DNA of 64,000 nucleotides, taken from contig CAZYDI010000001.1 of NCBI GenBank assembly GCA_964646255.1, forward strand, positions 35,213-99,212, written 5' to 3'. The translations under genes were made by a program, and so were the position numbers. Below, piece after piece: positions 1,603-54,628 of this stretch. The notes beneath the pieces are model-generated. The model ran no database searches. It was not told the origin of the DNA and saw only the letters and a program-made list of their open reading frames with translations. Numbering within the stretch: position 1 is the first letter of the stretch; every line of letters starts with the position of its first letter. Origin of the DNA: an uncultured Bacteroidales bacterium (lineage in GTDB: Bacteria; Bacteroidota; Bacteroidia; Bacteroidales; UBA10428).

Positions 1603-2598
1603 CTAAAACTCGGGGCAAGGCACCATCTTTACCTTATGCTTAATGGGTTTTGTTTTAAAAACATAGCTGACAGACACCTCATGGGCTCCTCCCGACTTTG
1701 CAATGAGACGGGAAATGGTAAAATCGTAACTATAACCAAAGTTAAGGTCACCCGTCTTAAATCCCAGCAACAGCGTAAAGGCATCACGGTTGAATACTTC
1801 CTTGTAAAAGGGAATGCCCCTGTACCATACTCCGGCTACAAACGGGCTGTGAAACCAATAGACACCCAAATCAAGCTGCCTGTATTGCTCCTGCTGTTTA
1901 TAAATAAAAGCCAGTTGAATGCTTGTTGGTACCGGTCGTAACAGTTTTTCAGGCCTTACAAATTTTACGCCGCCAAATACGGAATACTTGATGGGAATCT
2001 TACCCTGGTTCGCCTCATCTCCTTCATATAAATAAAGTGACTGGTTGGGCCTTAACAGATGGTCTACTGCCATTCCAAACCAAAACTTTGAGGAATAAGT
2101 CAGCAACGAAGTTGAAAAGTCAATGTCATCAGCGCTTTCCATCGTGCGGTTTTCCTGAGAACTCGACTGCGTTCCGTCGGGCGTTATCTGGTCACTCCAT
2201 GTGAGCCTGTCAAAATCAATGCCTCGTTCGGTATAGTTAAAATGCAATCCCGGCCTTGCATGCCATGTTTCAGTCAGCCGAAAATCAAATGAATACTGAA
2301 GGCCTATGCTCGTGGTACGCATCCTTCCCGTTCCTGCTATATCCTGGTATGCGAGTACCCCCAAGCCGCTGTTAAATTTGTCGACGAATTTATCAAACGA
2401 TACGGAATATGTCTGATATGCATGTTTAATTTCAGGCCACTGATTCCGGTAATTGAAGCTGATCCGATTTTTATCGGTGAGCCCTGCAAAGGAGGGTGCC
2501 AGGTATAAATAGTTTGAGTAGAATTGAGAAAACTGGGGATCCTGAGCAGCAGCCCTGTAACCAATAAACATCAGCAATATGATACATAGCTTTCTCAT
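1603..2598 (-). CDS. type IX secretion system outer-membrane protein, PorP/SprF family
   Basis: Signal peptide followed by the family signature AQDPQFSQFYSNYLYLAPSFAG. Size is 331 aa. The start overlaps the stop of the upstream type-B CTD adhesin by 4 nt (ATGA). Confidence 0.85.
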   Translation of the reverse strand: MRKLCIILLMFIGYRAAAQDPQFSQFYSNYLYLAPSFAGLTDKNRISFNYRNQWPEIKHAYQTYSVSFDKFVDKFNSGLGVLAYQDIAGTGRMRTTSIGLQYSFDFRLTETWHARPGLHFNYTERGIDFDRLTWSDQITPDGTQSSSQENRTMESADDIDFSTSLLTYSSKFWFGMAVDHLLRPNQSLYLYEGDEANQGKIPIKYSVFGGVKFVRPEKLLRPVPTSIQLAFIYKQQEQYRQLDLGVYWFHSPFVAGVWYRGIPFYKEVFNRDAFTLLLGFKTGDLNFGYSYDFTISRLIAKSGGAHEVSVSYVFKTKPIKHKVKMVPCPEF

Positions 2599-5500
2599 CT
2601 CAGCAAGGTTACGTCTCCTGTTTGTTCAAATGTCAATCCGCTGGTATATTTACCTTCCACTCTCCAGATATATACATCTTCCTTGGCAACCGTACCATTG
2701 ATCATACCATCCCAACCCATGTCCTTGTCGAAACTCTCAAAAATAAGTTCTCCCCAGCGATTGAAAATCATCAGATGATAATCCTCTACAAAATCAATTA
2801 ATGCCGGTTTAAATACCCTGTTTTCCTGCAAACTGGCTTCGGGACTAAACACATTGGGGAACTTCAAGGTTCCTACGGGCTCAACCAATACTGCTGCCTG
2901 ATATTCATAAACATCATAGCATTGCTTATCCGTCCATACGTTTAGGGTAACATTATAACTTCCTGCTTCTTCATATAAATGCACTGGGTTAACATCCTGT
3001 GATCCGTTTCCATCGCCAAAATCCCACAGGTATGTATTGCCATCCACCGGATAAGCACCATTGTCTGATTGATTTTCAAACAGTACGGCCTGGTCATTGG
3101 CATATACCCGCCGTGGCTTTATGTCGAAGAAGGCATTGGGCAAAACATACACATCATTATTTGTGCTGTAGGATGAGGCGCTTCCATCATCACCCCAGGC
3201 GGTTAGTTTTATAGTGTAAGTGCCGGGTTCGTAATAGGTATACTGGGGATTTGGCTTGTTTGAAACAGCACCATCACCAAACTCCCACAGGTATGAATTT
3301 GAATACATCGAAGTGTTTTGAAACTGTATGGTTAGCGGCATACAACCCGGCTCTACCGGCATGAATGCAGCAATAGGAGGATGCGGTACAATCTGCGCCG
3401 ACTCCCAAACACTGTCGGAACAATGTTCCCCTCTTACTACAAGGTATATTAAATAGTTTCCCGCACCCGGATAGGTATGGGGTAAAGGTTCCCGTAATTC
3501 GCTGTAAGTGCTGTCACCAAACTTCCATAAATATTCCCAGTTGCCTTCTTCAGTCGTATTGGTAAAGGCAATCGTCCTGTCGGGAATCATCTGGTATGAA
3601 GGATCAAGGGTAAAGGATGCACGGGGTGACGGATGAACGGTAATCAAGGTCTGTCCGGAATCTACGCATCCAAAGAAAGAAGTGGATACGAGCCTTACCA
3701 GGAAGACGGTGTCCTTATCGGTATCATTAACAAAGGTATGCATGATATTAAAATCACCGTCAGCAAATTGCCCGTCACCGAAATTCCATTGGTAATTTAG
3801 TCCTCCCGGTGTGGAGGACAACAATATGTCAGCCGGAGCGCAGGCATTATCAGGGAAAGTACTGATTACCAGCGGAGGATTGGGATATACAACAATATAT
3901 TCATTGGTGGTATGAATGCAATTGCTGGCATTTACAGCGGTAAGCTGAACATTGAAGTACTGTACCGAATTGCTTGTATTGCTAAAAGTATGAACCGGAT
4001 TGGCCTCTGCACTGATGTTTCCGTCACCGAAATTCCATGAATAGGAAATTGCATCTTCTGAATTATTGGTGAAATGAACATTCAGCGGACTGCAACCCGG
4101 CTCGGCATCGGAAACAAATATTGCCCTTGGCGCATCATTGAGTATGCTGACCGAATCAGCGGCCATACAGCCGTGATTATCCGTAACAGAAAATTTCAGG
4201 TGATAGGTGCCCTTCAGGAAAGTGTTAAATACAGGGTTTGGTATATTGATATCAGAAAGCGGCGTAGTCTGTCCACTCCATAAATATTGCGGATAAATTC
4301 CAGACCCTCCGCTTACATTGGCATTAAGTGGCAGATCAGCTCCTGTACAGGTGAGTGAATCACTTGTAATCACCACCTCAGGGTTTGGATATACGGTTAT
4401 ATAAATGGTATCTGAAGCATTGTTCAGGTTAATATCGTTTACACTGATGGTAATCATATAGTTCCCCTCCGAAGGGGCATTAAAAATCGGGTTGGAAATA
4501 TTCGTGGCATTTAAGTACTGAACATCACCGCCCCAAACAAAGGTATATGAAGGGGTTCCCCCAGTGGGAACAGCTGAAAGCTGGAGATTGGTATTAATGC
4601 AACCATTGCCTGACTTCGGAGTGATATCAAGAACGATGAGGTCGGCTTTAACGTCTATGGTCTTAACTGCGGGTGGGCCTTCACAACCCAGGCTATTGGT
4701 CTCTGTTACCGATATATTATATGTTCCTATATTCGGGAATTCAACAATTACAAAGTTCTGGTTTTCCAGCAAAAGATTCATTCCCGGAGGTATGGCCCAG
4801 TCATAGGTTGATCCGGGTTGGAAATTAACGGAATATATTACATTGGTCTGGTTGATTCCTACTGCCTCAGGTCCAATGATGGTTTGGGGGGAAGGAACAG
4901 GAAGAATGACTGCCATTACTTCACGCCTGCTGCTTTCACATCCCGTACTTTCATTAAATGTTGAAACATAATATCGGCGTGTATTGGTTAAATATTCGGT
5001 AACATATTGTTCGTCCTGCATCAATACACTGCCCCCTGTAAGACTGTCATACCACCGGGTCACGGTTCCGTTCAATCCCGCTGAAGCCATAAGCACAACC
5101 GTATCAGGTCCGCACTGTGTTACATCAGGAGCTACAGGAAAACCGGGAATCGGATGTATATTGACCATTACACGCTGTCGCGGGCTCACACAACCTGTTG
5201 TTTTATTGATTGTAGAAACCCAATAAGACGTTGTTGAAGTTAAATACGGTGTTGCAAATGATGCTGTTGTATCCAGCAAAGTGCCGCCGGTTTGGGCATC
5301 AAACCATTGGTTATGGTTTCCGTTAACACCCACTGTTGAGGCTATTGTCAACGCACCTTCACCGCAGCGTGCTGTATCATAGGCCACTGGAGTGCCCGGA
5401 ATGATGTCTATCTGTACATGAACAGGGACTCTTTCGCCTTCGCATCCTGTAATCGCATTATAACTGCTTACCCAATAGGTAACAGGAGCTGTGAGTACAG

Positions 5501-8384
5501 GTGTAACAAACGTATCAGCTTCAGCCAGGATAACACCTCCTGATGAAACAGCATACCACCTGTTGTTAGTCCCATAATTTCCGACCGCTGCGGGTATAGT
5601 CGCACTCACATTGCCGCAATGCTGTATGTCGGAAACCACAGGAACCGAAGGGATATCATGAATGGTAATATTTACCCTTCTTCTTGGACTTTCACATCCA
5701 TTGGTAAGGTTAATGGAAGAAATCCAGTAATCGGCTGCTGAGGATAAAACCGGCGTGGTAAAACTATTGCCTTCTGACAGCAGGGGCCCTCCTGAAGGGT
5801 TGTCATACCAGCGGTTAATATCACCTCCCGATCCGGTTGTTGATGTAAGTACCAGGGTTCCCGGGCCGCATCGTTCTCCATCTGCAGCAAAAGGAGCTCC
5901 GGGCATTGGTTTAAAGAGAATGCTGACTGTATCAGCGGTTGGAGGACATGAACCGCTCTCTATCCTCCATTCAAAAGTGTACAATCCTTCGTCACCTTCA
6001 TCAATCTGTGCAATTGCAGCAGATGAATGAATACCGGGTATAAATGCAACTTCACCAGGCCCGGAAATCAGACTCCAGGTCCCTGTACCACGGCCTGCAC
6101 TATTAGCCGAAAGCGTGGCCTGTGTTCCACATACACTATCGGCAGGTCCGGCATCAGCAGGAGGAACGGGCATGCCGAAATCTACCCTTACGGTGTCTGA
6201 TGTGATACAACTTGCATTTACAATGGTCCACGCGAATTCATATATTCCTGCATTTCCGGCGGCTATTTGCACGGTTGCATCAGGGTTATTTATGGAGGGG
6301 CTAAATATTGGAGGAACTGCTACCGGAGCTGATACCACGCTCCAAGTCGCTGTTCCGACTGTGGCACTGTTTGCACCGAGTGGTGAAGTAACCGAACTGC
6401 AAAGCATTTGGTCAGCTCCTGCATTTGCAGGGGCAGGAGCCTCATCACGGGTGATTGTAACAACATCACTGCTGCCGGGACAAATATTGTATTCACTGAC
6501 GGCGGTCCACCGGAATTGATTGTTGCCAAAGCCTATATTCGAAACTTCGGTGGCCGGATCATATATATCATCAATCAGCGATGTTCCTGAAATCACTGAC
6601 CAGGAACCGGTTCCGCCGTTGTCAACAGTGTCAGCAGAAAGGTTAACGGCCGAAGAATCACAAACTCCCCTGTCAGGTCCTGCGTTTGCAGGTGAAGGTA
6701 TCCGGTCTCTCAGGATTCTCACAGTATCGGTGGTGGTATTGCAAACGCCATAACGACTTCTTATCGTCCATGCAAACTGGTTTACTCCTCCTGCCAGTGA
6801 TGATACAGTGGCATGCGGATTATTGCTGTCGTTAAAGGCACCATTGCCCTGTGCTACCGTCCATGTTCCTATTCCGTTGTTGGTCACTGCCGATGCAGCA
6901 AGTATTGTGCTTGTGTTGTTGCAAAATTGCTGGTTGGGACCTGCATTGGCCGGGTCCGGCTGCTGATCGCTGGTAATAAGCACTTCATCAACCGAAATAC
7001 ACGGACCATTGGTAATGGTCCAACGGAACAGGTTCGGGCCCGGACTTAAATTGTAAACCTGGCTTTGGGGATTAAGCGGATCGTCTATGGTGGCAAGAGA
7101 TGTGGTGGTCCACCTGCCGGTCCCTATCACAGGGGTATTGCCATTCAGTGTATACTGATTATCACAAATAGCCGCATCATCTCCTGCATCCGGTGCAGGT
7201 ACCGGTATGTCGAATATCCTGAAGGATACCCTGCTCGGTGCACTTGCGCAAGCCCCTATGGTTTCGGTAACCCAGTATGAATATGTTCCTCCGGTAGTAT
7301 TATCGATATAGGTGGGAGTTCCAACCGGGTTAAAGCTGTTTCCGGTGTGAATATGGTGGGTAAGTAGGGAATCGGTGTACCAGTTTACCTGTCCTCCTGA
7401 CGTTGAAAGGGTAAGGTTAATAGGGCTTCCTGCGCAAAATTCCAGCGAAGGATTGGTGATCTCGGGCGGCGTGGTAATGATTTCTATAAGGGCAGTGGTG
7501 GTAATCGGAGGATTATCACCATTGATAAGATCAGAAGGAGGCACTGCATCAAAAGGATTCCGATCGTATGGGTTGCAGATGTTCCAGTTCCTGAGGGTGA
7601 TTTCAAAAATATCACCGGCAATCCCGCCGGCAGGAGCACTGATTGGCCAGGATATTTCAGTTGGACCATCAGCAGGGATGGGTATTTCCACTATTGGTCC
7701 CGGAACCGGCGGCAGGGAATTTCCGTCGGCATCCGTCATCTGGTAAATATTTCCCAGCGGATCCCGGATTGTAATATTGGGAATCCTGTCTCCTCCAATG
7801 CTGGTTGTACCATAAATAAACTGTACCCACCGGGTTATCCGGTTAGGCTTGTCGGGTTCAACGTTAATATTGCAGTTAAAAGTGGAATTGTCGGCAAAAA
7901 CCACATCAACAATATCCTCACCCTCGCAAAACTGGGCTACTACCGGATCAGTAATGATAACGGCGCCATTTTGATTGTCCCTGGCCCATGCACTGAATGT
8001 TTGTTCCTGGCGGCTGCTGCTCACGCACTGCTGTCCGTCGTAAACAACATAAGCCTCTGCGGTATATGAGCACTGGTCAGAAGGAGGGTAAAGGTGGGAT
8101 GCTGTAGCTGTGAAAACTGTGTCACCTTGTGAAATTGCCGGAACCTGGGTGGTAGCTCCTGTTCCATCGTTCCATACATATAATATCTCCACACGTGATG
8201 GATCAACAGGAAGTATGAATTTATACCGTACGTCCATGTTCAGGTTAACAGGGGCACAAACGCTTCCGGCTACCTGTCCGCTGTAATTGTCGGTGATCAG
8301 TGCGCACTGACCGGCAGCCTTCTGCGATAACATGGTTGCGAATAACGGAATTACGGTGAGTAGTTTTGTTAATGTGCCCCTCAT
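2595..8384 (-). CDS. giant (1929 aa) modular cell-surface adhesin with a T9SS type-B (gliding motility-associated) C-terminal sorting domain
   Basis: Signal peptide (MRGTLTKLLTVIPLFATMLSQKAAGQ). Five PKD-type W/FxFGDG motifs. Ig-like WY...GG.LL...YWVS...GCES modules. C-terminus FPNVFSPE...MIFNRWGELIFES...GWDG...DVYIWRV...GDVTLLR. Confidence 0.9.
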   Translation of the reverse strand: MRGTLTKLLTVIPLFATMLSQKAAGQCALITDNYSGQVAGSVCAPVNLNMDVRYKFILPVDPSRVEILYVWNDGTGATTQVPAISQGDTVFTATASHLYPPSDQCSYTAEAYVVYDGQQCVSSSRQEQTFSAWARDNQNGAVIITDPVVAQFCEGEDIVDVVFADNSTFNCNINVEPDKPNRITRWVQFIYGTTSIGGDRIPNITIRDPLGNIYQMTDADGNSLPPVPGPIVEIPIPADGPTEISWPISAPAGGIAGDIFEITLRNWNICNPYDRNPFDAVPPSDLINGDNPPITTTALIEIITTPPEITNPSLEFCAGSPINLTLSTSGGQVNWYTDSLLTHHIHTGNSFNPVGTPTYIDNTTGGTYSYWVTETIGACASAPSRVSFRIFDIPVPAPDAGDDAAICDNQYTLNGNTPVIGTGRWTTTSLATIDDPLNPQSQVYNLSPGPNLFRWTITNGPCISVDEVLITSDQQPDPANAGPNQQFCNNTSTILAASAVTNNGIGTWTVAQGNGAFNDSNNPHATVSSLAGGVNQFAWTIRSRYGVCNTTTDTVRILRDRIPSPANAGPDRGVCDSSAVNLSADTVDNGGTGSWSVISGTSLIDDIYDPATEVSNIGFGNNQFRWTAVSEYNICPGSSDVVTITRDEAPAPANAGADQMLCSSVTSPLGANSATVGTATWSVVSAPVAVPPIFSPSINNPDATVQIAAGNAGIYEFAWTIVNASCITSDTVRVDFGMPVPPADAGPADSVCGTQATLSANSAGRGTGTWSLISGPGEVAFIPGIHSSAAIAQIDEGDEGLYTFEWRIESGSCPPTADTVSILFKPMPGAPFAADGERCGPGTLVLTSTTGSGGDINRWYDNPSGGPLLSEGNSFTTPVLSSAADYWISSINLTNGCESPRRRVNITIHDIPSVPVVSDIQHCGNVSATIPAAVGNYGTNNRWYAVSSGGVILAEADTFVTPVLTAPVTYWVSSYNAITGCEGERVPVHVQIDIIPGTPVAYDTARCGEGALTIASTVGVNGNHNQWFDAQTGGTLLDTTASFATPYLTSTTSYWVSTINKTTGCVSPRQRVMVNIHPIPGFPVAPDVTQCGPDTVVLMASAGLNGTVTRWYDSLTGGSVLMQDEQYVTEYLTNTRRYYVSTFNESTGCESSRREVMAVILPVPSPQTIIGPEAVGINQTNVIYSVNFQPGSTYDWAIPPGMNLLLENQNFVIVEFPNIGTYNISVTETNSLGCEGPPAVKTIDVKADLIVLDITPKSGNGCINTNLQLSAVPTGGTPSYTFVWGGDVQYLNATNISNPIFNAPSEGNYMITISVNDINLNNASDTIYITVYPNPEVVITSDSLTCTGADLPLNANVSGGSGIYPQYLWSGQTTPLSDINIPNPVFNTFLKGTYHLKFSVTDNHGCMAADSVSILNDAPRAIFVSDAEPGCSPLNVHFTNNSEDAISYSWNFGDGNISAEANPVHTFSNTSNSVQYFNVQLTAVNASNCIHTTNEYIVVYPNPPLVISTFPDNACAPADILLSSTPGGLNYQWNFGDGQFADGDFNIMHTFVNDTDKDTVFLVRLVSTSFFGCVDSGQTLITVHPSPRASFTLDPSYQMIPDRTIAFTNTTEEGNWEYLWKFGDSTYSELREPLPHTYPGAGNYLIYLVVRGEHCSDSVWESAQIVPHPPIAAFMPVEPGCMPLTIQFQNTSMYSNSYLWEFGDGAVSNKPNPQYTYYEPGTYTIKLTAWGDDGSASSYSTNNDVYVLPNAFFDIKPRRVYANDQAVLFENQSDNGAYPVDGNTYLWDFGDGNGSQDVNPVHLYEEAGSYNVTLNVWTDKQCYDVYEYQAAVLVEPVGTLKFPNVFSPEASLQENRVFKPALIDFVEDYHLMIFNRWGELIFESFDKDMGWDGMINGTVAKEDVYIWRVEGKYTSGLTFEQTGDVTLLR
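2880..4133 (-). repeat. five tandem PKD domains (aa ~1418-1835)
   Basis: YSWNFGDGN..NPVHTF, YQWNFGDGQ, YLWKFGDST, YLWEFGDGA..NPQYTY and YLWDFGDGN..NPVHLY, spaced about 83 aa apart. Confidence 0.85.
4899..5897 (-). repeat. four tandem ~82-aa Ig-like modules (aa ~830-1162); a fifth diverged copy lies at aa ~310-392 (nt ~7209-7457)
   Basis: Repeated pattern C-G-x-G...RWYD...GG.LL...F.TP.L...YWVS..N..TGCES.R..V.V.I. This looks like the Ig-like domain commonly attached to CHU_C/type-B CTD proteins. Confidence 0.75.
5907..7202 (-). repeat. five tandem ~85-aa coding modules (aa ~394-826) inside the adhesin
   Basis: Each module starts P-x-P-A-[ND]-A-G-x-[DN]-x3-C, then G-x-G-x-W, then F-x-W-T-I...C...D-x-V-x-I (for example PDPANAGPNQQFC / PSPANAGPDRGVC / APANAGADQMLC / PPADAGPADSVC). 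Boundaries are approximate. Confidence 0.75.
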
Positions 8385-8400: not shown

Positions 8401-8418
8401 ATCCGTTGCCCAACGGAT
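8401..8418 (-). promoter_or_regulatory. perfect inverted repeat ATCCGTTG-CC-CAACGGAT in the 5' leader of the adhesin gene
   Basis: Read directly from the sequence. It lies 17-34 nt upstream of the ATG at 8384. It could form a 7-bp stem with a 4-nt loop in RNA, or act as a palindromic operator. Confidence 0.3.
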
Positions 8419-8661
8419 GGTTTAGTTCGTCTCTTTTTTATTTCATTCTATCCCGGTTTTTTTCAGATTTTGGACGTTTAGGTCTGGTAGTCCGGATTTT
8501 TTGATCAGGTATACGATTTTTGTGACGAATGGTTTCGATGAGGTGACGAACTGCTGAAAAAAGATTAAATTTTGGGCTCCTGTTCCAACGCAGAAAGCCA
8601 ATTCGAACAATTACAACCGAATGGATGTTTGTTTATGAAATTCATATAAAAATTAAACGCT

Positions 8662-9066: not shown

Positions 9067-10434
9067 TCACTGGCGATACAGGTGGACGAATCCTTTAAAC
9101 CACTTCTTGTCTATAGGATTTATAGTACTTTGATACGCAGGTAGCCGGGATATTACATAAAAATAAACCCCTTCAGGGGCTTCTCTGCCCGAATCCATAA
9201 TAAAACCATCCCAGCCAGGCCAATCCCTTATTAATCCCTTGTACTGGTGTACTTTGAGCCCGGTTCTGCTGAAAATGGTTATGTCAACCCCAATTACCGA
9301 AACTTCAGATGTCCGGAAAACATCATTCTCGTTCAGGGTGAAAACCGTATTCCTTGAACCGGAAGGGGTGAACACATTGGGCATATTAAAGTTCTCTTCA
9401 GTTGCATAGTCTATGCTTACCATTAACGACATACTGTCGAGGCATTCGAAGGGTGGATGCGACATTGTTGTTAATACTACTTTATAGTCACCGGGCTTTT
9501 GGTATACATGCTCATACAGCAAAGAATCCGCACCTCCGGTAACCGAATCGCCATCTCCAAAAACAAGCAGGTACTTATTCAGGTTTTTTGACCCGGATAT
9601 GTCAATCCTGAAACGTGCAGGGGCAGAAACATCATCATAATCATAGAATGCCTCAAACCATGGATGATTCGGATAGTTGGCGGTATCATCAACAAGCTTA
9701 ATATATTCGATAGGGTTCTTAATTTCAGCCCTGGACTGAATTGACTTGTAAAATACCGAATCTTCCCGCCGCATGCCATAACTGTCGGAAATGGTTATGG
9801 TATACCAGGTATCCCTCCAGGGCGGATCATTTACACGGGTAAGCAATCGGCCCGGGGGTGTTGATGCGTCTGTATTATCAGACAACCAACGAATGGTATA
9901 CACATTGGGCAGGTTTACTTTTGCTCCTGTTGAGGGATTGTGGTAATATAAAGGAATCCTTGTGCTGTCGGCCCTTAAATCAAGCGAGGCACAATTGTAA
10001 TAGCCGAAAAGAACAGTATCACCTTCACCTTTATTGGTAATGGTTACATTCAAATCGTTCAATATGACCCAGGCCCTGAAAACATGGTTTATTGTACCAT
10101 TGCTCATGGTAACCTGATAACCTGCTGAAGCACTGATGTTATTCAGCACAGATGAATTGCCTGTATTGGATGCTGAAAGGTCATTGTAACCTGAATCCTG
10201 CGGTATGTAAATAGCCCATTGAAAAGTCCAGTCATCCAGCCCGTCAGGGGATAAAGCCAGGAGGGAGGCTGAAACCGGCGCACCAAAGTCAGGCCGGTTA
10301 AAAATAAAAACCTTATCGGTGCCATATTGGGCATTGATTGAATCATCAGCAGCCGGAGCGAATATCTGGGCCTGCAGGCCGCAAAAAATCGACATCACAG
10401 CTGAAACAATGATCCATTTCTTTGTCAATTGCAT
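9067..10434 (-). CDS. secreted protein with a PKD-like domain and a T9SS type-B C-terminal sorting domain
   Basis: Signal peptide. FGDGDSVTG...YEHVYQKPGDYKVVLT. C-terminus MPNVFTPSGS...ITIFSRTGLKVHQY...WPGWDG...PEGVYFYVI...GFVHLYRQ. Confidence 0.8.
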   Translation of the reverse strand: MQLTKKWIIVSAVMSIFCGLQAQIFAPAADDSINAQYGTDKVFIFNRPDFGAPVSASLLALSPDGLDDWTFQWAIYIPQDSGYNDLSASNTGNSSVLNNISASAGYQVTMSNGTINHVFRAWVILNDLNVTITNKGEGDTVLFGYYNCASLDLRADSTRIPLYYHNPSTGAKVNLPNVYTIRWLSDNTDASTPPGRLLTRVNDPPWRDTWYTITISDSYGMRREDSVFYKSIQSRAEIKNPIEYIKLVDDTANYPNHPWFEAFYDYDDVSAPARFRIDISGSKNLNKYLLVFGDGDSVTGGADSLLYEHVYQKPGDYKVVLTTMSHPPFECLDSMSLMVSIDYATEENFNMPNVFTPSGSRNTVFTLNENDVFRTSEVSVIGVDITIFSRTGLKVHQYKGLIRDWPGWDGFIMDSGREAPEGVYFYVISRLPAYQSTINPIDKKWFKGFVHLYRQ

Positions 10435-17320: not shown

Positions 17321-19192
17321 ATGAAAAATTTCGCTTGCCTGATGGTTGTTTTAATGATTTCAGTGGCTTCTTTTGCCCAACCTCCTTATTATAAAAACTT
17401 TACGGTTTCTGTTTATGCCAGGGCCTATGAGGTTAACGAAATGGCCGATATTAAGAAGCTGGAACAAAACTGGGATATTATTAGTCAACAGGTTAAAGTT
17501 GACAAAATTTACCTGGAAACTCACCGCGATAAGCTGATTACAGATTCCAAAGCACTTGAGCAGGCAATAAAGTTTTTTAAGTCGAAAGGCCTGAAAGTGG
17601 CCGGTGGCATTACGTATACAATGAATGAAAGCAATAATTTTGAGACTTTTTGTTATACCAATCCTGAACACCGGCAAAAGGCTAAAGAGATAGCAACTTA
17701 CACAGCCAAATACTTTGATGAATTTATTCTTGATGATTTCTTTTTTACAAGCTGCAAGTGCGATTTATGCATTGAAGCAAAAGGAAATAAAAGCTGGACC
17801 GAATATCGTCTGCAATTAATGACAGATGCGGCACGTGACCTAATCATCAATCCTGCCAAAGCAGTTAACCCCAAGGTGAAGGTCATCATCAAGTACCCCA
17901 ACTGGTATGAGCATTTTCAGGGCCTGGGTTTCAACCTCGAAACAGAACCCGGCATGTTCGATGGCATCTACACGGGAACGGAAACCCGTGACCCGGTATT
18001 TACCGATCAGCATCTTCAGCAATATGAAAGTTATCTTATTGTCCGTTATTTTGAAAACATTGCCCCGGGTAGAAATGGCGGAGGATGGGTTGATCCGGGC
18101 GCTGCCTTTTACCTCGACAGGTATGCTGAACAGTTTTGGCTTACACTTTTTGCCAAAGCTCCCGAAGTAACAATGTTTGATTACCGGCAATTGCTTAACC
18201 CTGTTTCTCTCTCACAGCGAGGATCATGGCAGGGAAATCAAACCAGTTTTAATTTTGAAGAAGGCTTTAAACCTGTCGTTACGCGTGACAACACCGTAAA
18301 ACCTGCAACCTATGCCCGCGCAGCAGGAATGGCATTTGAACAGGTTGATAAGTTTCTTGGTAAACTTGGCAATCCGGAAGGCATTAAAAGTTACCGGCCA
18401 TTCCATGCCACAGGGGAAGATTTTTTGCAAAACTACCTGGGCATGATTGGTATACCAATGGATATTGTACCCGTATTTCCCAATGACGGGGATATGATCA
18501 TCCTTACTGAGTCGGCTGCCTTTGATGCGGACATTGTTTCCAAAATTAAAACCCGTTTGCGCTCCGGCAGGAATGTTATGATAACTTCAGGCTTATTGCG
18601 GGCATTGCAGGGGAAAGGTATTGAAGACATTGCTGAAATAACATACACCGACCGAAAAGCATTGGTTTCTGATTTCAAAGCCGGATGGGGCAGATTTGTT
18701 AAATCGGAGCAGGAAATTCTGATTCCCCAGATTAATTACCTTACCAATGATTCATGGGAAGAAGTTTCGGCAATCAAAGGCGCCACAGGATGGCCAGTTT
18801 TACACAGGGCACAGTATTCAGGGGCAAATTTATACGTGCTGACCATTCCCGATAATTTCTCCGATTTATACCAATATCCTGCAGAAGTTCTGAACAGGAT
18901 ACGCGCGGTGGCAACAAAGGACCTTAAAGTTAGAATTGAAGGCCCTTCACAGGTAAGCTTATTTTGCTATGACAACGGTACCTTCATTGTGGAATCATTC
19001 CTGCCTGAACCGGTCAGGGTAAAAATAGTATTCAGCAATCCTTATAAAGCAATTACGGACTTGATCAGCAATGAAACCCTCCAGGGAAACCTGGTGTCAA
19101 ACGCCTTTTTCAGAAACAGGCAGGCCACCCCGGAATACAATGTCGAATTAACTATAAAGCCTCATTCATATATGGTATATCAATTACAATAG
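17321..19192 (+). CDS. secreted protein of unknown function, possibly a distant GH42-like three-domain glycoside hydrolase
   Basis: Signal peptide. The N-terminal half has an alternating beta/alpha pattern. Cysteine cluster C111-x33-C145-x-C147-x2-C150 (FCYTNPEH...SCKCDLC). The function assignment is inference only. Confidence 0.35.
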   Translation: MKNFACLMVVLMISVASFAQPPYYKNFTVSVYARAYEVNEMADIKKLEQNWDIISQQVKVDKIYLETHRDKLITDSKALEQAIKFFKSKGLKVAGGITYTMNESNNFETFCYTNPEHRQKAKEIATYTAKYFDEFILDDFFFTSCKCDLCIEAKGNKSWTEYRLQLMTDAARDLIINPAKAVNPKVKVIIKYPNWYEHFQGLGFNLETEPGMFDGIYTGTETRDPVFTDQHLQQYESYLIVRYFENIAPGRNGGGWVDPGAAFYLDRYAEQFWLTLFAKAPEVTMFDYRQLLNPVSLSQRGSWQGNQTSFNFEEGFKPVVTRDNTVKPATYARAAGMAFEQVDKFLGKLGNPEGIKSYRPFHATGEDFLQNYLGMIGIPMDIVPVFPNDGDMIILTESAAFDADIVSKIKTRLRSGRNVMITSGLLRALQGKGIEDIAEITYTDRKALVSDFKAGWGRFVKSEQEILIPQINYLTNDSWEEVSAIKGATGWPVLHRAQYSGANLYVLTIPDNFSDLYQYPAEVLNRIRAVATKDLKVRIEGPSQVSLFCYDNGTFIVESFLPEPVRVKIVFSNPYKAITDLISNETLQGNLVSNAFFRNRQATPEYNVELTIKPHSYMVYQLQ

Positions 19193-20073: not shown

Positions 20074-21955
20074 ATGAAAAAGATCTTTCCTGCATTGTTG
20101 ACCCTGCTTTCGCTTGTTTCCTGCAAGACTGCTGTGGAAATTCCGCGGTACACCATTGATCAGTTTTATAAGAACATCCGGATTTCTGGCGGCAGCTTTA
20201 ATACCGATGAGTCCAGGCTCCTGGTCAGTTCGGATAAATCAGGTATTTTCAATGTGTATGAGATCAACCTTGCCGATACCGGCATGCGACAGATTACCCA
20301 TTCCACCAATGAATCATTTTATGGTATAGATTACGTTCCCGGAACCAATGCCATCTTATATTCGGCAGATAAAGGGGGAAATGAAATTGACCATATCTAC
20401 CTTTACAATGAGGATGGAAGTTCACTGGACCTGACACCGGGTGAAAAGGAAAAGGCAAATTTTGCTGGTTGGAGCAAGGATAAAAAATCCATGTACTTCA
20501 CTTCCAATAAGCGTGATTCCAAGTATTTCGACCTGTATAAAATGAAAATTGGTGAATGGAAACCTGAGTTGGTTTATCAATATAAAGACGGACTTGATAT
20601 TGCAGGTTGGTCAGATGATGAGAATACGTTAGCCCTTCAGAAAGTTATTACATCCAGTGAAAACCAATTGTTTCTGCTTGACCGCAGTACGAATAAAATG
20701 GTAGAAATTTCTGATCCTGCATTACCAGGACAATACAACGCATCAGAATTCAGTGATGACGGAAAATACTTTTATTACATTACCGATGCCGGAAAGGAAT
20801 TTGCTTACCTTATGCAATATGAAATAGCATCCGGTAAAAGAACATCGCTCTATGAAACAAACTGGGATGTTATGTATAGCTATGTAAGTGAAAATGAAAA
20901 GTACAGGGTATTGGCCATAAACGAAGATGGAAAGAACACAATTGATCATTAAAGACAACCAGACAGGCGAAAACATCTCCTTCCCGCAAATACCTGATGG
21001 CAACATCACCAGTGTTGCCATATCCGATAGCGAAAGTCTCATGAGACTTTCTGTAGGTACTTCCATTTCCCCTACCAACCTGTATGTTTACAATTTTGAA
21101 ACCGGGGCACTGAAAAAACTAACGGAAACCCAAAATCCGGAAATTAACAAAGACCACCTGGTAGCTGCCGAAGTTGTTAGGTATAAATCATTTGACGACC
21201 TTGAAATTCCTTCTATTTATTACAAACCAATGATGGCCTCTCCGAAAAATAAAGTTCCCGCTTTGATATGGGTACATGGCGGACCCGGTGGCCAGTCGCG
21301 TATAGGCTATTCACCCCTGATTCAATTTCTGGTTAATAACGGATATGCAGTGTTAGCAGTAAACAACCGTGGGAGCAGTGGTTACGGAAAAACTTTCTTT
21401 ACCTTGGATGACCAAAACCATGGAGACAAGGATTTAAAGGATTGCATTGCGGGTAAGCATTGGCTGCAAAAGCAGAACTATATAGACACCGCTAACATCG
21501 GCATCCTTGGAGGAAGTTATGGCGGATTTATGACCATGGCTGCTATGACAACAACGCCCGATGAATTTAAGGCAGGAGTTAATTTATTCGGTGTTACCAA
21601 CTGGATAAGGACACTTAAATCAATTCCGCCATGGTGGGCATCATTTAAAGATGCTTTATACCAGGAAATGGGCGATCCTTATACGTCCGATTCAGTAAGG
21701 CTTTACAATATTTCACCGGTATTTCATGGCGACAAGGTGAAAAATCCGGTTATGGTACTTCAAGGAGCCAACGATCCAAGGGTTCTGCAGGTTGAATCGG
21801 ATGAAATGGTGGAGGCTATAAGAAAAAACAACGTCCCGGTTGAATACGTGATATTCCCCGATGAAGGGCATGGCTTTGTAAAAAAGGAAAACGAAATAAA
21901 AGGGTATAGCCAGATATTGGCTTTTCTCGATAAATACCTGAAAGAACAGGAATAA
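20074..21955 (+). pseudogene. S9 family prolyl oligopeptidase/dipeptidyl aminopeptidase lipoprotein, split by a +1 frame change near 20927-20952
   Basis: ORF 20074-20952 is the lipobox plus PD40/beta-propeller half. ORF 20927-21955 is the alpha/beta-hydrolase half (GGSYGGFM nucleophile, GANDPRV, DEGHGF). The two overlap by 26 nt in adjacent frames. Confidence 0.7.
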
Positions 21956-22002: not shown

Positions 22003-22872
22003 TCATCGCATATCTACTGCGATACCTGTTTTTTCTGAACTAAATATGGCGGCAAAATATCCGGTTGCATTTGGAATATTTCCTGTTGCGTTGGCCGGAG
22101 GACCGCTCATGCTGAATGCATTACCCGACTCATCAATCATTTTTAGGTCATTTATGTAATCATAGAATTTCTTTTCTACGGAAATAATGCGGAAACGTAT
22201 AAAATCATCTGGCATTACGTTATCCACGTACAGGATGAAATCATTATAGTTGCCGTTTGAAAACTCGTCATTGAAGGTTAGAATTTCTTTGGCGGTTTTT
22301 TGCAGGGGCACCTCATTGCTGAAAATCCTTGCCAGGTAATAGTTTTCCTCATCGACAGGCTCATAGCCGAAATAATAGATACCCAGGATGGTTGAGTCAA
22401 CATCTTCTTCATCTTCCTGTATATCCAATATAGGCATTTCATACACTTCACACAAGATGGTATCCAGTTCAATGCCACGCGGCATAAGGGTAGTAGCAGA
22501 ATAGTCGGAGAACCCGCTTACCGGTGTTTCCAAATGGATATCCAAAACATAGGTTTTTGTTGGTTCTCCTGTAAAAGCTTCATCAGAAATATACAATCCG
22601 GGCCGGGAATTGCTTTCACTATAAGTATATACCTGGCTTCCTGAGGTAACCATAACGGTGGCTCCAGATACTGCTGGCGGCTGACCGGTATTGAAATAAT
22701 CGGTTGTAAGTGTCAGCATTATGGTTTGATGCCTGGGCGAATTGACAATGGTTCCGTCAACATTGAGTTTGTCAGGATAATCATCCAGTTTCCAGCTAAT
22801 TTCCTCTTCCATTTCATTGCATGAAAGCATTGCAAGGGCTGCGAATATTATATATACAAAAGGTTTCATCAT
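22003..22872 (-). CDS. DUF4249 family lipoprotein (second copy)
   Basis: I chose the internal start MMKPFVYIIFAALAMLSCNE (lipobox), 16 nt after the TonB-receptor stop. The longer ORF to 23022 would overlap the receptor. LNVDGTIVNSPRHQTIMLTLT is a family-like N-terminus. Confidence 0.65.
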   Translation of the reverse strand: MMKPFVYIIFAALAMLSCNEMEEEISWKLDDYPDKLNVDGTIVNSPRHQTIMLTLTTDYFNTGQPPAVSGATVMVTSGSQVYTYSESNSRPGLYISDEAFTGEPTKTYVLDIHLETPVSGFSDYSATTLMPRGIELDTILCEVYEMPILDIQEDEEDVDSTILGIYYFGYEPVDEENYYLARIFSNEVPLQKTAKEILTFNDEFSNGNYNDFILYVDNVMPDDFIRFRIISVEKKFYDYINDLKMIDESGNAFSMSGPPANATGNIPNATGYFAAIFSSEKTGIAVDMR

Positions 22873-22888
22873 TGCTGTATTTTTGAGG

Positions 22889-25291
22889 TTAGAAAGAAAA
22901 GTTCCATGAAACAGATGGCATAAAGCCAAGGAAGTTTTGCTTATAAGCATGGGTAATGTTTTCATTGTCTTCATCGGGTTTGAAATATATCGAAATCGGA
23001 TTGGTGCGGTTATACACATCAAATACGGACAGGACTAACTCATTGTGAAACCGCCGGTTTGGCTTTTCCTTGCTTTTCCATGTTACGCTCAAATCAAGCC
23101 GGTGGTATAAAGGCATACGGTCTTTGTTGCGTCCTGCATAATAGGGCACTACCACACTTCCGCTGCTTATTAGAGAATCGCCGTAATAATAGGTTCTTTT
23201 AACGGGTGAAGTAAAAGGCCTGCCTGATTTAAGCTGGAAATTGGCCGATACCGAAAGTCGCTTGCTTATTTCATACATAGCCACCACCGATAAATCATGC
23301 GGCCTGTCAAATGAGGATAAATACCATCCCTTTTCCTGAATATCCTTTGTTTTTTTCTCGGTCTTCGATAATGTATAACTTATCCAGCCGGTAAGATCAC
23401 CGGTGGATTTCTTAACAAACAACTCCAGGCCATAGGAACGGCCTTTGCCAAACCTGAAGTCTTCGTCCATTCTCTCATTGAACTGTGGTGTTGCAAATTC
23501 ACGGAATTCAATCTGATTTTGCATATCCTTATAATACACTTCCACCGATGCCTCTATCAGGTTGTTTTTCGAATTGTGGAAGAATCCTATGCTGTACAGG
23601 TCTGCCAACTGTGGTTTAATGTTTGTGCCTGAGCCGACCCAGATATCCAGAAGTGAACCTACACTTGAGTTGGAAGCAACATGTACAAATTGACTGGTAC
23701 GGCTGTATCCGGCCTTTATGGCATTGTTGGAATTAAGCTTCAGGTTCATGCCAATCCTTGGTTCAAAGGATTGATAATGGTTATATATGTCTCCTTCACC
23801 ATAATGGGCTGTATCATAAGTTGCGTAAGCATCGTTCAGCAGGAACACATCGGTCTTGCCCATGTTTTGAAATAAAGCGTACCTAAAGCCGTACTCAAGT
23901 GTAAGGTTGGGAGTTACCTTATATTCATCTGAAATATACCCTGCATGCTCAAGCGCTTTGTTCTGTGGCATGATGTAATCAAACCGTGATGTATCATTGT
24001 ACCCGATAACTTCGCCGGGATTAAATTTGTGCAGCGTACTGATCCATCCGGCCCTTAATGTATGCTTTTCCCCGGCAAAATAGTCAAAATCGAGTTTTGC
24101 TGAATAATCGAGCAAATCAGCATCCCAATCGAATGACACCTCTTTTTGAGGCTCACTGTAACTGATGCTGTTGCCAAAAGAGTAATTATAATTGCTCACC
24201 AGCAAGGTTAAATTGCCAAATAACTTCTCCGAAGGAATATAGTTCCACCTGAACGTACCTGTATAATTTCCCCATTTGAACCGGTTTTCGAGGGCATCAT
24301 TTTCCGAATCCAATTCAAAAACATCTTTTCCAAAATATCCCGAAAGATAAACCCGGTTTTTTGGGTTAACCTGATAATTGGCTTTCAGGTTCAAATCATA
24401 AAAGTAATAGGGAACAACAGGAATGGTGTCATCCAGTTTATTCATGGCCTTGGTAAGAAGATCAATATATGCCCTGCGCCCCGAAATAAAAAATGATCCT
24501 CTGTCTTTTACAATGGGCCCTTCTACGGTGAGCCTGCTCGACAGGGTTCCTATGCCTCCTGATACCCCGAAATTTTTTCTGTTTCCGTCCTTCATGCGCA
24601 TATCAATTACCGATGATAACCGGCCTCCATACTGCGCAGGCATATTGCCCTTGTAAAATTCCATATTCTGAATGGCATCATTGTTAAACACTGAGAGCAG
24701 GTTTCCAAGATGACTGGCATTGTAAACGGTAGCTTCATCAAGCATTATCAGGTTCTGATCGCGTCCTCCTCCGCGCACACTTATTGTTGACCCGCCATCA
24801 TCACTGGATTTTACCCCCGGTAGCAGTACAAGGGTTTTCAGAACATCGGCCTCACCATAGGCAACAGGAATCTGTTTGAGGGTTTTGGCAGATAGTGTAA
24901 CCACTGCCATTTTGGTTGAATTAACATTCTCCTGTGCCTTTTCGGCCTTGATTACAACCTCTCCCAGTTGCTGAGCCTTTTCTGTGAGTTCAAAATTTAC
25001 GGCGATGGATTGCTTCAAATCAATTATGGTATCAATTGTCTCGTACCCCAGATAACTTACCATAAGGTTGTATTCACCGGGTGCCAGGCTGAGGGAATAA
25101 AAGCCATAAGCATTGGTGATTACGCCAATGGTGGTATTATTGACGTACACTCCCACTCCAATCAGTGTTTCGCCATTTTTCCTATCCGTAATGTTTCCGC
25201 TGATGGTAATTTTTTGAGCATTCAAATAACAACCAACCGATAACAACAGTAGACCAAAGAATGGTCGTAAAATCTTTTTCATCATATTCAA
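22889..25291 (-). CDS. TonB-dependent receptor with an N-terminal carboxypeptidase-regulatory-like domain (no STN domain)
   Basis: ITISGNITDRKNGETLIGVGVYV...NAYGFYSL. Plug region GEADVLKTLVLLPGV, ISVRGG. 800 aa. C-terminal beta-barrel ends in ...SWNFSF. Confidence 0.85.
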   Translation of the reverse strand: MNMMKKILRPFFGLLLLSVGCYLNAQKITISGNITDRKNGETLIGVGVYVNNTTIGVITNAYGFYSLSLAPGEYNLMVSYLGYETIDTIIDLKQSIAVNFELTEKAQQLGEVVIKAEKAQENVNSTKMAVVTLSAKTLKQIPVAYGEADVLKTLVLLPGVKSSDDGGSTISVRGGGRDQNLIMLDEATVYNASHLGNLLSVFNNDAIQNMEFYKGNMPAQYGGRLSSVIDMRMKDGNRKNFGVSGGIGTLSSRLTVEGPIVKDRGSFFISGRRAYIDLLTKAMNKLDDTIPVVPYYFYDLNLKANYQVNPKNRVYLSGYFGKDVFELDSENDALENRFKWGNYTGTFRWNYIPSEKLFGNLTLLVSNYNYSFGNSISYSEPQKEVSFDWDADLLDYSAKLDFDYFAGEKHTLRAGWISTLHKFNPGEVIGYNDTSRFDYIMPQNKALEHAGYISDEYKVTPNLTLEYGFRYALFQNMGKTDVFLLNDAYATYDTAHYGEGDIYNHYQSFEPRIGMNLKLNSNNAIKAGYSRTSQFVHVASNSSVGSLLDIWVGSGTNIKPQLADLYSIGFFHNSKNNLIEASVEVYYKDMQNQIEFREFATPQFNERMDEDFRFGKGRSYGLELFVKKSTGDLTGWISYTLSKTEKKTKDIQEKGWYLSSFDRPHDLSVVAMYEISKRLSVSANFQLKSGRPFTSPVKRTYYYGDSLISSGSVVVPYYAGRNKDRMPLYHRLDLSVTWKSKEKPNRRFHNELVLSVFDVYNRTNPISIYFKPDEDNENITHAYKQNFLGFMPSVSWNFSF

Positions 25292-25369
25292 TACTGGTTT
25301 AACTTAATTTTTCACATATGACAAAAACATTGAAAGAAACCCTACCTCTGCCTGGCAAAATAACAACAC

Positions 25370-26179
25370 TTAAGGAATGGCAACGATTACGACTTCTTTT
25401 CTGATAACTGCTGATACCTGGAAATAACCCGGAGTCCATGGTTCAAATAGTGCGGGTAAGTTGGTCTGGTAACTGATGTGACTTAAATCAAGTGAAAATA
25501 CCTGGTAACTCAGCTTGAAATAATAATCGAACAATTCTTTTGACAGGGTATAAAGCCTGATATCCATCGTATCATTTACCTGTAACGGTATATTTATGGA
25601 CAATCCTTTCAGTTGATCTACGTAGTTATCCTGGAATATGTAGAGCTCACTCCCGTGGGTTATCCTCGATCCGTTGGTATCCACATCAACAAGGTAATAT
25701 CCTGTAAGGTTAGCAGGGTGCTTCTTTAGGTCGAAATACACATAATAAGCAGAATCCTTGCTTTCGGGAGGTTTATCATATTTGTAATATACCGAATCAA
25801 GGCTGCCCCTCTCCTGTATCGATCCCGTTGAAACATAAGTAATTCCGGCCAAAGTTACTTCAAGGGTATACTCAACCCCAGGGCAGGCAGCAAAAACGCT
25901 GCTATTATACCATCCGTTCTCATCGTAACTGAATGAAAAGGTTTCTCCTTCCGATGAACAGATAATAACATCGGCATCTGAAACAGCACTGTAAGCCAAA
26001 CTATCGTTCAGGTTTGTACTGTAAGTAACCCTTACTTTCTGGACTTCTTCACTGTCTGTTAGTATGGCTTCAATCACAGGCAAAGCAGAATAATCATCCT
26101 GGTCGGGAAACCGGACAACATCTTCACAGGCTATGTGCGTTAAAAACAGCAACAGAAAATATACAGGCTTACCCTTCAT
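25370..26179 (-). CDS. DUF4249 family lipoprotein (first copy)
   Basis: Lipobox THIAC. LPVIEAILTDSEEVQKVRVTYS. 4-nt overlap with the upstream receptor gene. Confidence 0.65.
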   Translation of the reverse strand: MKGKPVYFLLLFLTHIACEDVVRFPDQDDYSALPVIEAILTDSEEVQKVRVTYSTNLNDSLAYSAVSDADVIICSSEGETFSFSYDENGWYNSSVFAACPGVEYTLEVTLAGITYVSTGSIQERGSLDSVYYKYDKPPESKDSAYYVYFDLKKHPANLTGYYLVDVDTNGSRITHGSELYIFQDNYVDQLKGLSINIPLQVNDTMDIRLYTLSKELFDYYFKLSYQVFSLDLSHISYQTNLPALFEPWTPGYFQVSAVIRKEVVIVAIP

Positions 26180-28740: not shown

Positions 28741-28768
28741 ATATAATATTTACCTCAATTGGTAAATA

Positions 28769-29752
28769 TCAGTTACATGAATGGCCGCTAACGAAAAACT
28801 GTTCCCCGTCGCCGGTGACATCGCCACCGGTGGCCACAGCAATCACATTCAATATGTTATTTAATTGCGGATCGCTAAATTCTCCCGAGAAAAGACAGGT
28901 TTCGATAGAGTCGGAAAATGTCAGGGCAACATTAAAATAGTTTTCCAGGTCTTCCCTCACAAGGCCAAGCGGCGTATTATCAAAGGAAAGAAGGTTGCGC
29001 ACCCGGGCAGCAGCATTTTTTGACGGCTCAATTTCTTTAATGATCCTTTTTTCATCATTATACAACATGGCTCTTTCACCGGCCTTAAGGTTTAATTGGT
29101 TGCGCTCCTTATTCTTCGCATAAAACAATACCCTGCCTTCGTCCACTACTACCCTGGTAATTGAGTCTGAGCTGTTTTCAACCAGGAATTTTGTCCCCAT
29201 AACCTGTATGTAAGAAGTTCCTGCATCAACCCGGAATTTGGTTCCGTTTTTTGCCACTTCAAAATACACTTCGCCTTTCGATCGCACCAGCCGGTGTTTT
29301 ACCATGTTGTTTGGATAACGTATTTCCGCATTGGTACCAAGCCATATTTGAGTGCTGTCAGGCAGAATAACATGTTTTCGTTCATCAACGGATGCAACCG
29401 TGATCCATTGCTTACCCGAACTCTTGTTAAAAAGGGTGATCCCCGCCACCGAAAGCATAATGAGCGGAACCAATACAGCTGCAATTTTCAAGACAATATT
29501 CCGGGGCGACATATGAATTTGCCGGGCATCAGGATAATCGCTTTTTAACCTGCTAAATTTCTGCCATTCCAGGTCGATATTGACATTGATATTCTCATGG
29601 TTACCCGAAAGATTCCATATAGCCGACAGTTCTTCATAGGTTTTTTTGTTCTCAGGAGAATCTGCAATCCATGCATTCAAAATGGCCAGGTTCTCTGCTG
29701 AGATTTTGCCCCTAAGCTGATCTGCTATAATATGGTAAATTTCTGTTTTCAC
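28769..29752 (-). CDS. FecR family anti-sigma factor / transmembrane sensor
   Basis: N-terminal anti-sigma region, a single TM segment (IAAVLVPLIMLSVAGITLF) and a FecR domain (VILPDSTQIWLGTNAEI...QVMGTKFLVEN). Confidence 0.85.
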   Translation of the reverse strand: MKTEIYHIIADQLRGKISAENLAILNAWIADSPENKKTYEELSAIWNLSGNHENINVNIDLEWQKFSRLKSDYPDARQIHMSPRNIVLKIAAVLVPLIMLSVAGITLFNKSSGKQWITVASVDERKHVILPDSTQIWLGTNAEIRYPNNMVKHRLVRSKGEVYFEVAKNGTKFRVDAGTSYIQVMGTKFLVENSSDSITRVVVDEGRVLFYAKNKERNQLNLKAGERAMLYNDEKRIIKEIEPSKNAAARVRNLLSFDNTPLGLVREDLENYFNVALTFSDSIETCLFSGEFSDPQLNNILNVIAVATGGDVTGDGEQFFVSGHSCN

Positions 29753-29767
29753 CCTTCCTGGATTATC

Positions 29768-46329: not shown

Positions 46330-46330
46330 T

Positions 46331-53549: not shown

Positions 53550-53572
53550 TGCTGTTGCTTATCTGACACCCT

Positions 53573-54622: not shown

Positions 54623-54628
54623 ACATCT

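Follow-up and report, generated by a model that had tools for sequence, protein, structure and literature searches.

Type-B T9SS substrates make up the surface adhesins with which Bacteroidota glide, prey and attach to hosts or algae, and the tip domain or ligand is known for very few of them. The locus described here lies in a 64-kb stretch of DNA from an uncultured Bacteroidales bacterium, analysed as a whole and referred to below as the window. It raises the question of whether a large gene with a type-B sorting domain and the smaller PorP/SprF-family gene behind it form a self-contained unit of adhesin and carrier, and of what the adhesin carries at its tip. An original prediction, made from the sequence alone, had read the two genes as a SprB/SprF-like pair, translationally coupled, with a cysteine-rich head of the large protein as its most likely ligand-binding part.

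The gene pair and its conservation

Both open reading frames (1929 aa and 331 aa, on the minus strand) are present as originally described (Table 1). The junction reads CTG AGA TGA / ATG AGA AAG, with ATGA common to the cargo stop and the PorP start, and the predicted overlap is confirmed by the sequence. No terminator-like site was found in the region 1300-2700, between or after both genes, and co-transcription of the two is well supported. The coupling claim fared less evenly: the overlap exists in the window but is not kept in relatives, where the distance from the cargo stop to the PorP ATG ranges from -1 to 171 nt (median about 12, 51 cases). Because the overlap varies in this way, translational coupling is only plausible. 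Assignment of the 331-aa protein to the PorP/SprF family is borne out by TIGR03519, which scores 236.8 bits (far above its curated cut-off of 90.55) and covers model positions 3-292 of 292, and by PF11751 (224.2 bits). It is the only PorP protein encoded in the window.

Table 1. Features of the cargo/PorP locus and their positions in the window
Feature	Position	Strand	Basis or remark
Cargo gene (1929-aa type-B T9SS fibrillar surface protein)	2595..8384	minus	ORF and HMM matches
PorP/SprF-family outer-membrane shuttle/anchor gene, 331 aa	1603..2598	minus	TIGR03519 (236.8 bits), PF11751 (224 bits)
ATGA, stop of cargo and start of PorP	2595..2598	minus	direct sequence reading
Signal peptide, aa 1-25, MRGTLTKLLTVIPLFATMLSQKAAG, followed by QC	8310..8384	minus	direct reading
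Head, aa 26-305, two tandem beta-sandwich domains, seven conserved Cys	7470..8309	minus	profile search, AF2
First Ig_7 (CHU_C-associated Ig-like), aa 306-392	7209..7469	minus	Pfam Ig_7; PF19081 in P0001
Five beta-sandwich repeats of ~83 aa, aa 398-826, GhpA-homologous	5907..7193	minus	self-HMM map, PDB match
Four Ig_7, aa 828-1162	4899..5903	minus	Pfam, self-HMM map
PKD_6, two PKD/K319L-like and five PKD, aa 1164-1828	2901..4895	minus	Pfam, self-HMM map
Type-B (CHU_C) C-terminal sorting domain (CTD), aa 1841-1929, end GDVTLLR	2598..2864	minus	PF13585, TIGR04131
PorP C-terminal tail, aa 315-331, KTKPIKHKVKMVPCPEF, single Cys327 at 1618-1620	1606..1656	minus	orthologue alignment
Small hairpin ATCCGTT-GGGC-AACGGAT in 5' leader, 17-34 nt upstream of ATG	8401..8418	minus	single-sequence folding
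ECF-sigma-type promoter-like motif cGAAAC-N16-CGTATA	8510..8537	minus	153 nt upstream of cargo ATG
Two TTCGTCA heptamers (8544-8550, 8523-8529), 21 nt apart, overlapping the promoter-like motif	8523..8550	minus	sequence
Possible associate: 455-aa PKD and CHU_C (type-B) protein	9067..10434	minus	no PorP gene of its own

The proposal that the cargo and its own PorP/SprF protein form a unit was examined across the GTDB species, each represented by one genome, with a trimmed core alignment as query. This returned 80 loci, mostly from uncultured "Bacteroidales bacterium" MAGs, with the rest from Cytophagales (Ekhidna, Nafulsella and Cesiribacteraceae). In all 62 evaluable loci (those covering the cargo end and the DNA behind it), which represent about 60 species-level genomes, the orthologous cargo gene is followed directly by a PorP/SprF gene; the other 18 loci end at a contig border (12), carry an ORF that runs past the fetched flank (5) or are frameshifted (1, L078). 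Three distant head matches (P0009, P0016 and P0020) likewise meet a contig end or frameshift before their 3' end and are uninformative on PorP. Adjacency of cargo and PorP is thus far beyond chance, and co-occurrence of the head with a PorP/SprF neighbour, proposed originally as a check, holds throughout the evaluable related loci.

In the window the pair is accompanied by genes for a methyltransferase, AlaDH, a DUF1761 protein, the 455-aa CHU_C protein, rimM and rpsP. Close relatives share the order rpsP-rimM-[455-aa CHU_C]-[DUF1761]-cargo-PorP-<methyltransferase-<AlaDH, and more distant relatives the order rpsP-rimM-cargo-PorP. The kept gene order indicates vertical inheritance of a single-copy gene. 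The 455-aa protein, a possible second client of this PorP, is retained upstream in about 25 close relatives, and its CTD is only 31% identical to that of the 1929-aa cargo.

It could be argued that the adjacency and overlap are incidental, or that the large ORF is a decaying gene, as frameshifts often interrupt its homologues in long-read assemblies. The first idea is effectively refuted by the conserved pairing. As for the second, 50 full-length orthologues (1850-2000 aa, identical domain order) have an uninterrupted ORF, as does the window, and an NCBI assembly contains an identical protein. The interrupted copies come from metagenome assemblies, and the breaks look like errors of assembly. 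We regard either version as scarcely credible.

Architecture of the cargo and its N-terminal head

Read by eye, the N-terminus of the cargo consists of a basic n-region and a hydrophobic core ending in AAG, followed by QC. The predicted mature protein begins with Gln26-Cys27, and orthologues keep G/S-Q-C at this point, including the Gln at +1. A Gln at +1 after signal-peptide cleavage is common in Bacteroidota (the Q-rule; pyroglutamate).

The cargo is a chain of about 20 beta-sandwich modules in all. The PKD and CHU_C-associated Ig (Ig_7) domains that a Pfam search had been expected to reveal are both there: the protein matches Ig_7 five times (E-value: 1e-63), PKD/PKD_4 (E-value: 5e-49), PKD_6 and K319L-PKD. 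Self-trained HMMs delimit the PKD_6 domain (aa 1164-1247), the two PKD/K319L-like domains (aa 1251-1418) and the five PKD domains (aa 1419-1828). The orthologous fragment P0001 (aa 1-367) carries PF19081. The middle repeats (aa 393-830) match no Pfam model at E ≤ 1. At the C-terminus, Pfam CHU_C (PF13585) scores 33.4 bits over aa 1841-1911, above its gathering threshold of 27, and TIGR04131 (NCBIfam) scores 33.5 bits (E-value: 3e-8), 1.5 bits short of its curated cut-off of 35. The type-B sorting domain predicted for the end of the protein is therefore found, although one of its two models falls marginally under the NCBI cut-off. Ig_7, PKD and CHU_C are also the building blocks of the large CHU_C surface proteins of Cytophaga hutchinsonii, from which the Pfam models CHU_C and Ig_7 derive; unlike those, the cargo has a head that belongs to no described Pfam or NCBIfam CHU family, and no functional link to cellulose use is evident.

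Among solved structures, the only strong match to the cargo is GhpA of Aureispira (PDB 9flp; phmmer E-value: 3.4e-145, 12 stretches). GhpA is a T9SS grappling-hook protein of 5898 aa and 240 nm, the N-terminus of which forms the distal hook (Lien et al. 2024). Cargo residues 356-757 align both to GhpA 4716-5124 (the best stretch, i-E-value: 6e-34) and to GhpA 5239-5621, and the CTD (aa 1822-1910) aligns to GhpA 5794-5883. All of the alignments lie downstream of the head, except for the end of one weak stretch that starts at aa 292 (i-E-value: 0.44). The two proteins share homologous stalk repeat types and a type-B CTD, and each has a PorP homologue encoded alongside. They differ at the N-terminus: the cargo lacks the antigen I/II-like hook module of GhpA (residues 26-1402) and has a 280-aa head of two predicted beta-sandwiches instead. 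The cargo is also a third of the length of the heptameric GhpA; scaled from the latter, its fibre would be roughly 80 nm long, against 240 nm. As a short GhpA relative, the cargo may be easier to handle structurally.

The head (aa 26-305) had been described as Cys-rich, non-repetitive and impossible to place in any family, and each part of this description has stood. No Pfam model matches it at E ≤ 1 and no NCBIfam model matches it. Head profiles match no PDB sequence at E ≤ 10, the 5898-aa GhpA chain included. Descent from the cargo's own modules was considered and rejected, as hhalign gives a probability of at most 1.3% for either subdomain against the PKD domains, Ig_7 domains or middle repeats. 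In a set of 113 diverse heads, seven Cys residues (27, 43, 105, 120, 153, 171 and 270) reach 82-100% conservation, as do the motifs CAPV, W-DG, FNC, RWxQFxYGT and NWNxCNPY.

An AlphaFold2 model of the head, built on a 30-sequence alignment (pLDDT 91.8, pTM 0.82), predicts an all-beta structure of two sandwich domains; it replaced an earlier model built on 13 sequences (pLDDT 70). The accompanying fold search, Foldseek against the PDB, returned only generic tandem Ig-like pairs (E-values 1e-5 to 1e-4, TM ≤ 0.32), among them integrin alpha-V legs, transglutaminase/FXIII barrels, Esp, ClfB, Cpe0147 and cytokine receptors. As modelled, the head is without a close structural relative and without an enzyme fold. 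A characterised enzyme or adhesin domain within these N-terminal 280 aa was sought by Pfam, NCBIfam, PDB sequence search and Foldseek, and none was detected.

Heads of this type are widespread. The number of clusters found by an exhaustive profile search falls from 335 at E ≤ 1e-3 to 243 at E ≤ 1e-10 and to 125 at E ≤ 1e-30. In the best 150 matches listed, the head almost invariably begins no more than ~60 residues into a protein of 1000-6000 aa. A type-B CTD (...GDVTLIR) ends 76 of 96 representatives of at least 900 aa, and the other 20 look truncated. In comparison, a word-indexed search with the head gave 20 matches only, and these were all fragments, frameshifts in metagenome assemblies having broken up the orthologous genes; in L001, for example, the orthologue is divided into pieces of 367 aa and 1511 aa and synteny is perfect. 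Mean identity to the window protein is 76-78% for the head, 66% for the CTD and 44-60% for most stalk domains, with PKD4 (71%) and the first Ig_7 (66%) as exceptions.

The head is thus a distinct, real and undescribed family and the best-conserved part of the cargo, and as such (about 335 clusters) it could enter domain databases. Its status as the most constrained part points to a conserved ligand or to a structural role. Based on its distal position and highest conservation, the head most likely binds a conserved ligand. Conservation as high as this is unusual for adhesin tips, and it could mean a structural or assembly role instead.

A beta-sandwich head of the predicted kind would also be compatible with a carbohydrate-binding module, and the cargo might then be a released soluble binding protein or enzyme, for example a polysaccharide-binding protein like some Cytophaga CHU_C proteins, with PorP needed for export only. 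Some fusions of sfGFP to a type-B CTD do reach culture supernatants when the shuttle is co-expressed (PMC12618676). Three points make this very improbable. First, Pfam searches found no catalytic or CBM family in the cargo at any threshold. Second, the native type-B substrates that have been studied remain bound to their PorP-like protein (PMC9143113, PMC12618676). Third, twenty tandem Ig-like domains are typical of stalks.

The PorP partner, its tail and proposed surface anchoring

Cargo genes followed by a cognate shuttle gene are already documented in SprB-SprF, Fjoh_3952-3951, PG1035-PorP and GhpA-GhpB. Type-B substrates bind PorP-like proteins for surface anchorage, as in PG1035-PorP-PorE and SprB-SprF (PMC9143113), and secretion needs a cognate SprF-like protein, usually encoded directly behind its cargo (PMC12618676). 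Ekhidna algicida has 10 type-B proteins, and 7 of them adjoin porP. The present locus does not overturn current models and will not surprise a T9SS specialist; it is a clean and widely conserved example, and what is new here are the head family, the kinship of the stalk with GhpA, the single-Cys PorP tail and the ECF-type promoter motif.

The name "SprB/SprF-like" given to the pair originally is appropriate for the layout and fails for orthology. As in Flavobacterium johnsoniae SprB-SprF, a cargo of Ig-like repeats with a type-B CTD is followed immediately by a PorP/SprF-family gene, the operon has no PorE-like gene, and the carrier has a cysteine in its periplasmic C-tail. Unlike SprB, the cargo has no SprB repeats (PF13573 unmatched in Pfam at E ≤ 0.01), is a third of the size (1929 versus 6497 aa) and has a different, undescribed head. 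Where SprF has Cys-X-Cys in its tail, the carrier here has one Cys, in PCP[E/D]F. The name is therefore an analogy only.

Based on the four documented pairs, we infer that the cargo is secreted, paired with its cognate carrier and anchored. The complete reading, which we hold to be likely, is that a single operon encodes a type-B surface fibre and its PorP anchor. The cargo would leave the cytoplasm through Sec, lose its signal peptide ahead of Gln26 and fold in the periplasm as a chain of about 20 beta-sandwich domains. Its CHU_C/type-B CTD would target it to the SprA/Sov translocon, from which the co-expressed PorP-like beta-barrel would take the fibre while staying bound to the CTD. In this way the fibre, roughly 80 nm long, would be anchored by PorP to the outer membrane, and the disulfide-rich two-domain head would be placed at the distal tip, most likely binding a conserved ligand.

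Whether such a fibre would be fixed or mobile can be approached through the PorP tail, which begins after the last barrel strand (...VSVSYVF) and lies outside the Pfam and TIGR models. It consists of a basic stretch followed by [MLI][VIL]PCP[ED]F, a pattern shared by all 62 locus orthologues and by each of 120 database homologues with at least 57% identity; Ekhidna PorP versions keep C-P-x-F internally. The Cys-X-Cys of the SprF type is absent from this tail, which has one Cys, within the invariant PCP[E/D]F. L065 carries a second, convergent type-B cargo/PorP pair, and because the PorP of that pair is without the tail Cys (the only Cys-less paralogue seen), this residue is not universal among PorP proteins.

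In SprF, the Cys-X-Cys of the tail forms a disulfide with Cys343 of GldK, attaching the adhesin to the moving track, and Porphyromonas gingivalis PorG is functional with a single tail cysteine (Liu et al. 2025, PMC12635249). Operons with a PorE homologue have been associated with static adhesins and those without one with track-borne adhesins, on the evidence of a few F. johnsoniae examples (PMC12618676). A PorE-like gene adjoins the pair neither in the window nor in syntenic close relatives, Ekhidna or Cesiribacteraceae. The pair is similar to Fjoh_3952-Fjoh_3951-Fjoh_3950 and PG1035-PorP-PorE in having a type-B cargo with the shuttle gene directly downstream, but differs from these static systems, both of which include a PorE-like peptidoglycan-binding partner. 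It likewise differs from the GhpA cluster, which encodes the PorE homologue GhpC as well as the PorP homologue GhpB (Lien et al. 2024). The window also contains gldH (45859-46410), one marker separating gliders from non-gliders (PMC10515386); of the five glider/non-glider markers, out of 11 gliding-required proteins, it is the only one visible.

Because no PorE-like gene is nearby, gldH is present and the tail Cys is invariant, it is reasonable to suppose, as a more speculative step, that PorP may be disulfide-linked to GldK/PorK in the manner of SprF. In that case the gliding track would carry or hold the fibre, which would not be pinned to peptidoglycan. We offer this tentatively, with somewhat more doubt than belief. 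The PorP subfamily with an invariant tail cysteine provides a direct test of the SprF-GldK disulfide mechanism beyond SprF.

The cargo might instead be a static appendage, possibly multimeric like the heptameric GhpA and serving in particle, cell or prey capture or in cohesion, with no coupling to a track and another role for the tail Cys. GhpA, the strongest solved-structure match (E-value: 3e-145, through stalk repeats and CTD), adjoins a PorP homologue too. The fixed length and domain order in 50 orthologues would suit a structural appendage, and the head family has members in Ekhidna, whose adhesion to diatoms has been suggested, not demonstrated. Set against this are the missing GhpA hook module, together with the failure of the head profile to match the GhpA chain at E ≤ 10; a cargo length that is a third of that of GhpA; and an operon without a PorE/GhpC-like gene, PorE being the published hallmark of static anchoring (PMC12618676). 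We consider a static appendage possible but rather unlikely.

Returning to the track-linked fibre, a broader form of this idea would make the head family and the PCP[E/D]F-tailed PorP a second, non-SprB class of track-tethered fibre: single-copy across the lineage, ECF-sigma-controlled, hitched to GldK/PorK by a disulfide and tipped by the undescribed two-beta-sandwich domain, which would recognise a conserved ligand. Such fibres would serve as the main motility or capture adhesin in a large clade of uncultured Bacteroidales and also in Cytophagales, Ekhidna for example. This generalisation is decidedly doubtful, more so than the static appendage.

Region upstream of the cargo gene

The 153 nt upstream of the cargo ATG lead back to a promoter-like motif of the ECF-sigma type. 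Promoters of the sigma-W (ECF) type have the form TGAAAC-N16-CGTA. The pattern GAAAC-N15-17-CGT[AC] occurs this single time in the 64-kb window, both strands counted. When 76 upstream sequences were scanned (window included), TGAAAC-N16/17-CGTATA was found in 32 of them, at -79 to -217 and, with the exception of L017, at -144 to -217 in every carrier. The carriers comprise 31 of the 45 sequences with a head identity of at least 74%, plus L070. Among carriers the hexamers are invariant and the spacer sequence is variable, which is the pattern expected for an ECF-type sigma promoter. Transcription of the cargo probably starts from this conserved candidate promoter, which should be useful for the study of adhesin regulation. 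A cluster of ECF sigma, FecR and TonB genes in the window (22003-30340) was considered as the source of the regulator and rejected, as the window holds no second copy of the motif and no link was found.

Two further elements accompany the promoter-like motif. The paired TTCGTCA heptamers are two of only six in the window and are conserved in an alignment of close relatives; they may be a putative regulator binding site. Closer to the start codon, hairpins comparable to that in the 5' leader, with differing stem sequences, are present in many orthologues according to single-sequence folds only.

Upstream region of the cargo gene, and regulatory genes

The promoter-like motif TGAAAC-N16-CGTATA, which is of the ECF-sigma type and is overlapped by two TTCGTCA heptamers 21 nt apart, occurs only once in the whole window, and its position relative to the cargo gene (encoding the 1929-aa type-B surface protein) is kept in approximately 30 related loci. 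Between this motif and the start codon lies a hairpin, a possible 5'-leader element, that is found at the corresponding site in many orthologues, where the stem sequence is different and is frequently adjoined by GGGCA. The window also carries a typical trans-envelope signalling cluster, in which each of the two TonB-dependent receptor genes is followed by a DUF4249 gene. No copy of the cargo-gene motif was found in this cluster. A LytTR response regulator is encoded elsewhere in the window, and in Ekhidna sp. To15 (locus L083, 8721-9503) a gene for such a regulator is located immediately 5' of the head-family cargo gene.

Features of the window and of L065, a related locus in another genome
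Feature	Position	Strand	Details
Hairpin	8401-8418	-	7-bp stem, ATCCGTT-GGGC-AACGGAT; 17-34 nt 5' of cargo start codon
Promoter-like motif and TTCGTCA pair	8510-8550	-	ECF-sigma type; 5' of cargo gene
Small type-B protein	9067-10434	-	PKD + CHU_C, 455 aa
623-aa ORF	17321-19192	+	nearly without family assignment
S9 prolyl-oligopeptidase-type gene	20074-21955	+	seemingly split; two overlapping ORFs
Signalling cluster	22003-30340	-	ECF sigma factor, FecR anti-sigma factor, two CarboxypepD_reg TonB-dependent receptors, DUF4249 genes
1012-aa ORF	35745-38783	-	nearly without family assignment; weak YfhO match only
GldH lipoprotein gene	45859-46410	-	PF14109, E 2e-37
Regulatory cluster	52764-55381	+	LiaF-like membrane protein, histidine kinase, LytTR response regulator
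Second type-B cargo and PorP-like pair	L065 16582-20249	-	convergent to head-family pair

Stalk length and additional type-B proteins

In loci L072-L075 and L079 (Cytophagales MAGs and one labelled Hyphobacterium), the head-family ORFs extend more than 10.5 kb past the head, corresponding to more than 3500 aa, and members reach 6023 aa among the matches listed from the representative search. The same head is therefore carried on stalks that differ greatly in length.

The gene for the 455-aa type-B protein is kept just 5' of the cargo gene in approximately 25 close relatives. Its CHU_C domain shows 31% identity to that of the large protein, and its N-terminal 270 aa gave no family match. The protein lacks a PorP gene of its own and is a possible "orphan" among type-B substrates. 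In L065, the PorP paralogue of the second pair has the C-terminal end ...GDSTRRYRYWERY, without the tail cysteine.

Other genes in the window

The 623-aa ORF had no Pfam match at E ≤ 1e-3. The two S9 ORFs encode a beta-propeller part (292 aa) and a catalytic part (342 aa), and their apparent split may reflect a frameshift, pseudogene formation or an error in sequencing. GldH, encoded further along the window, is among the markers that separate gliding from non-gliding Bacteroidota (PMC10515386).
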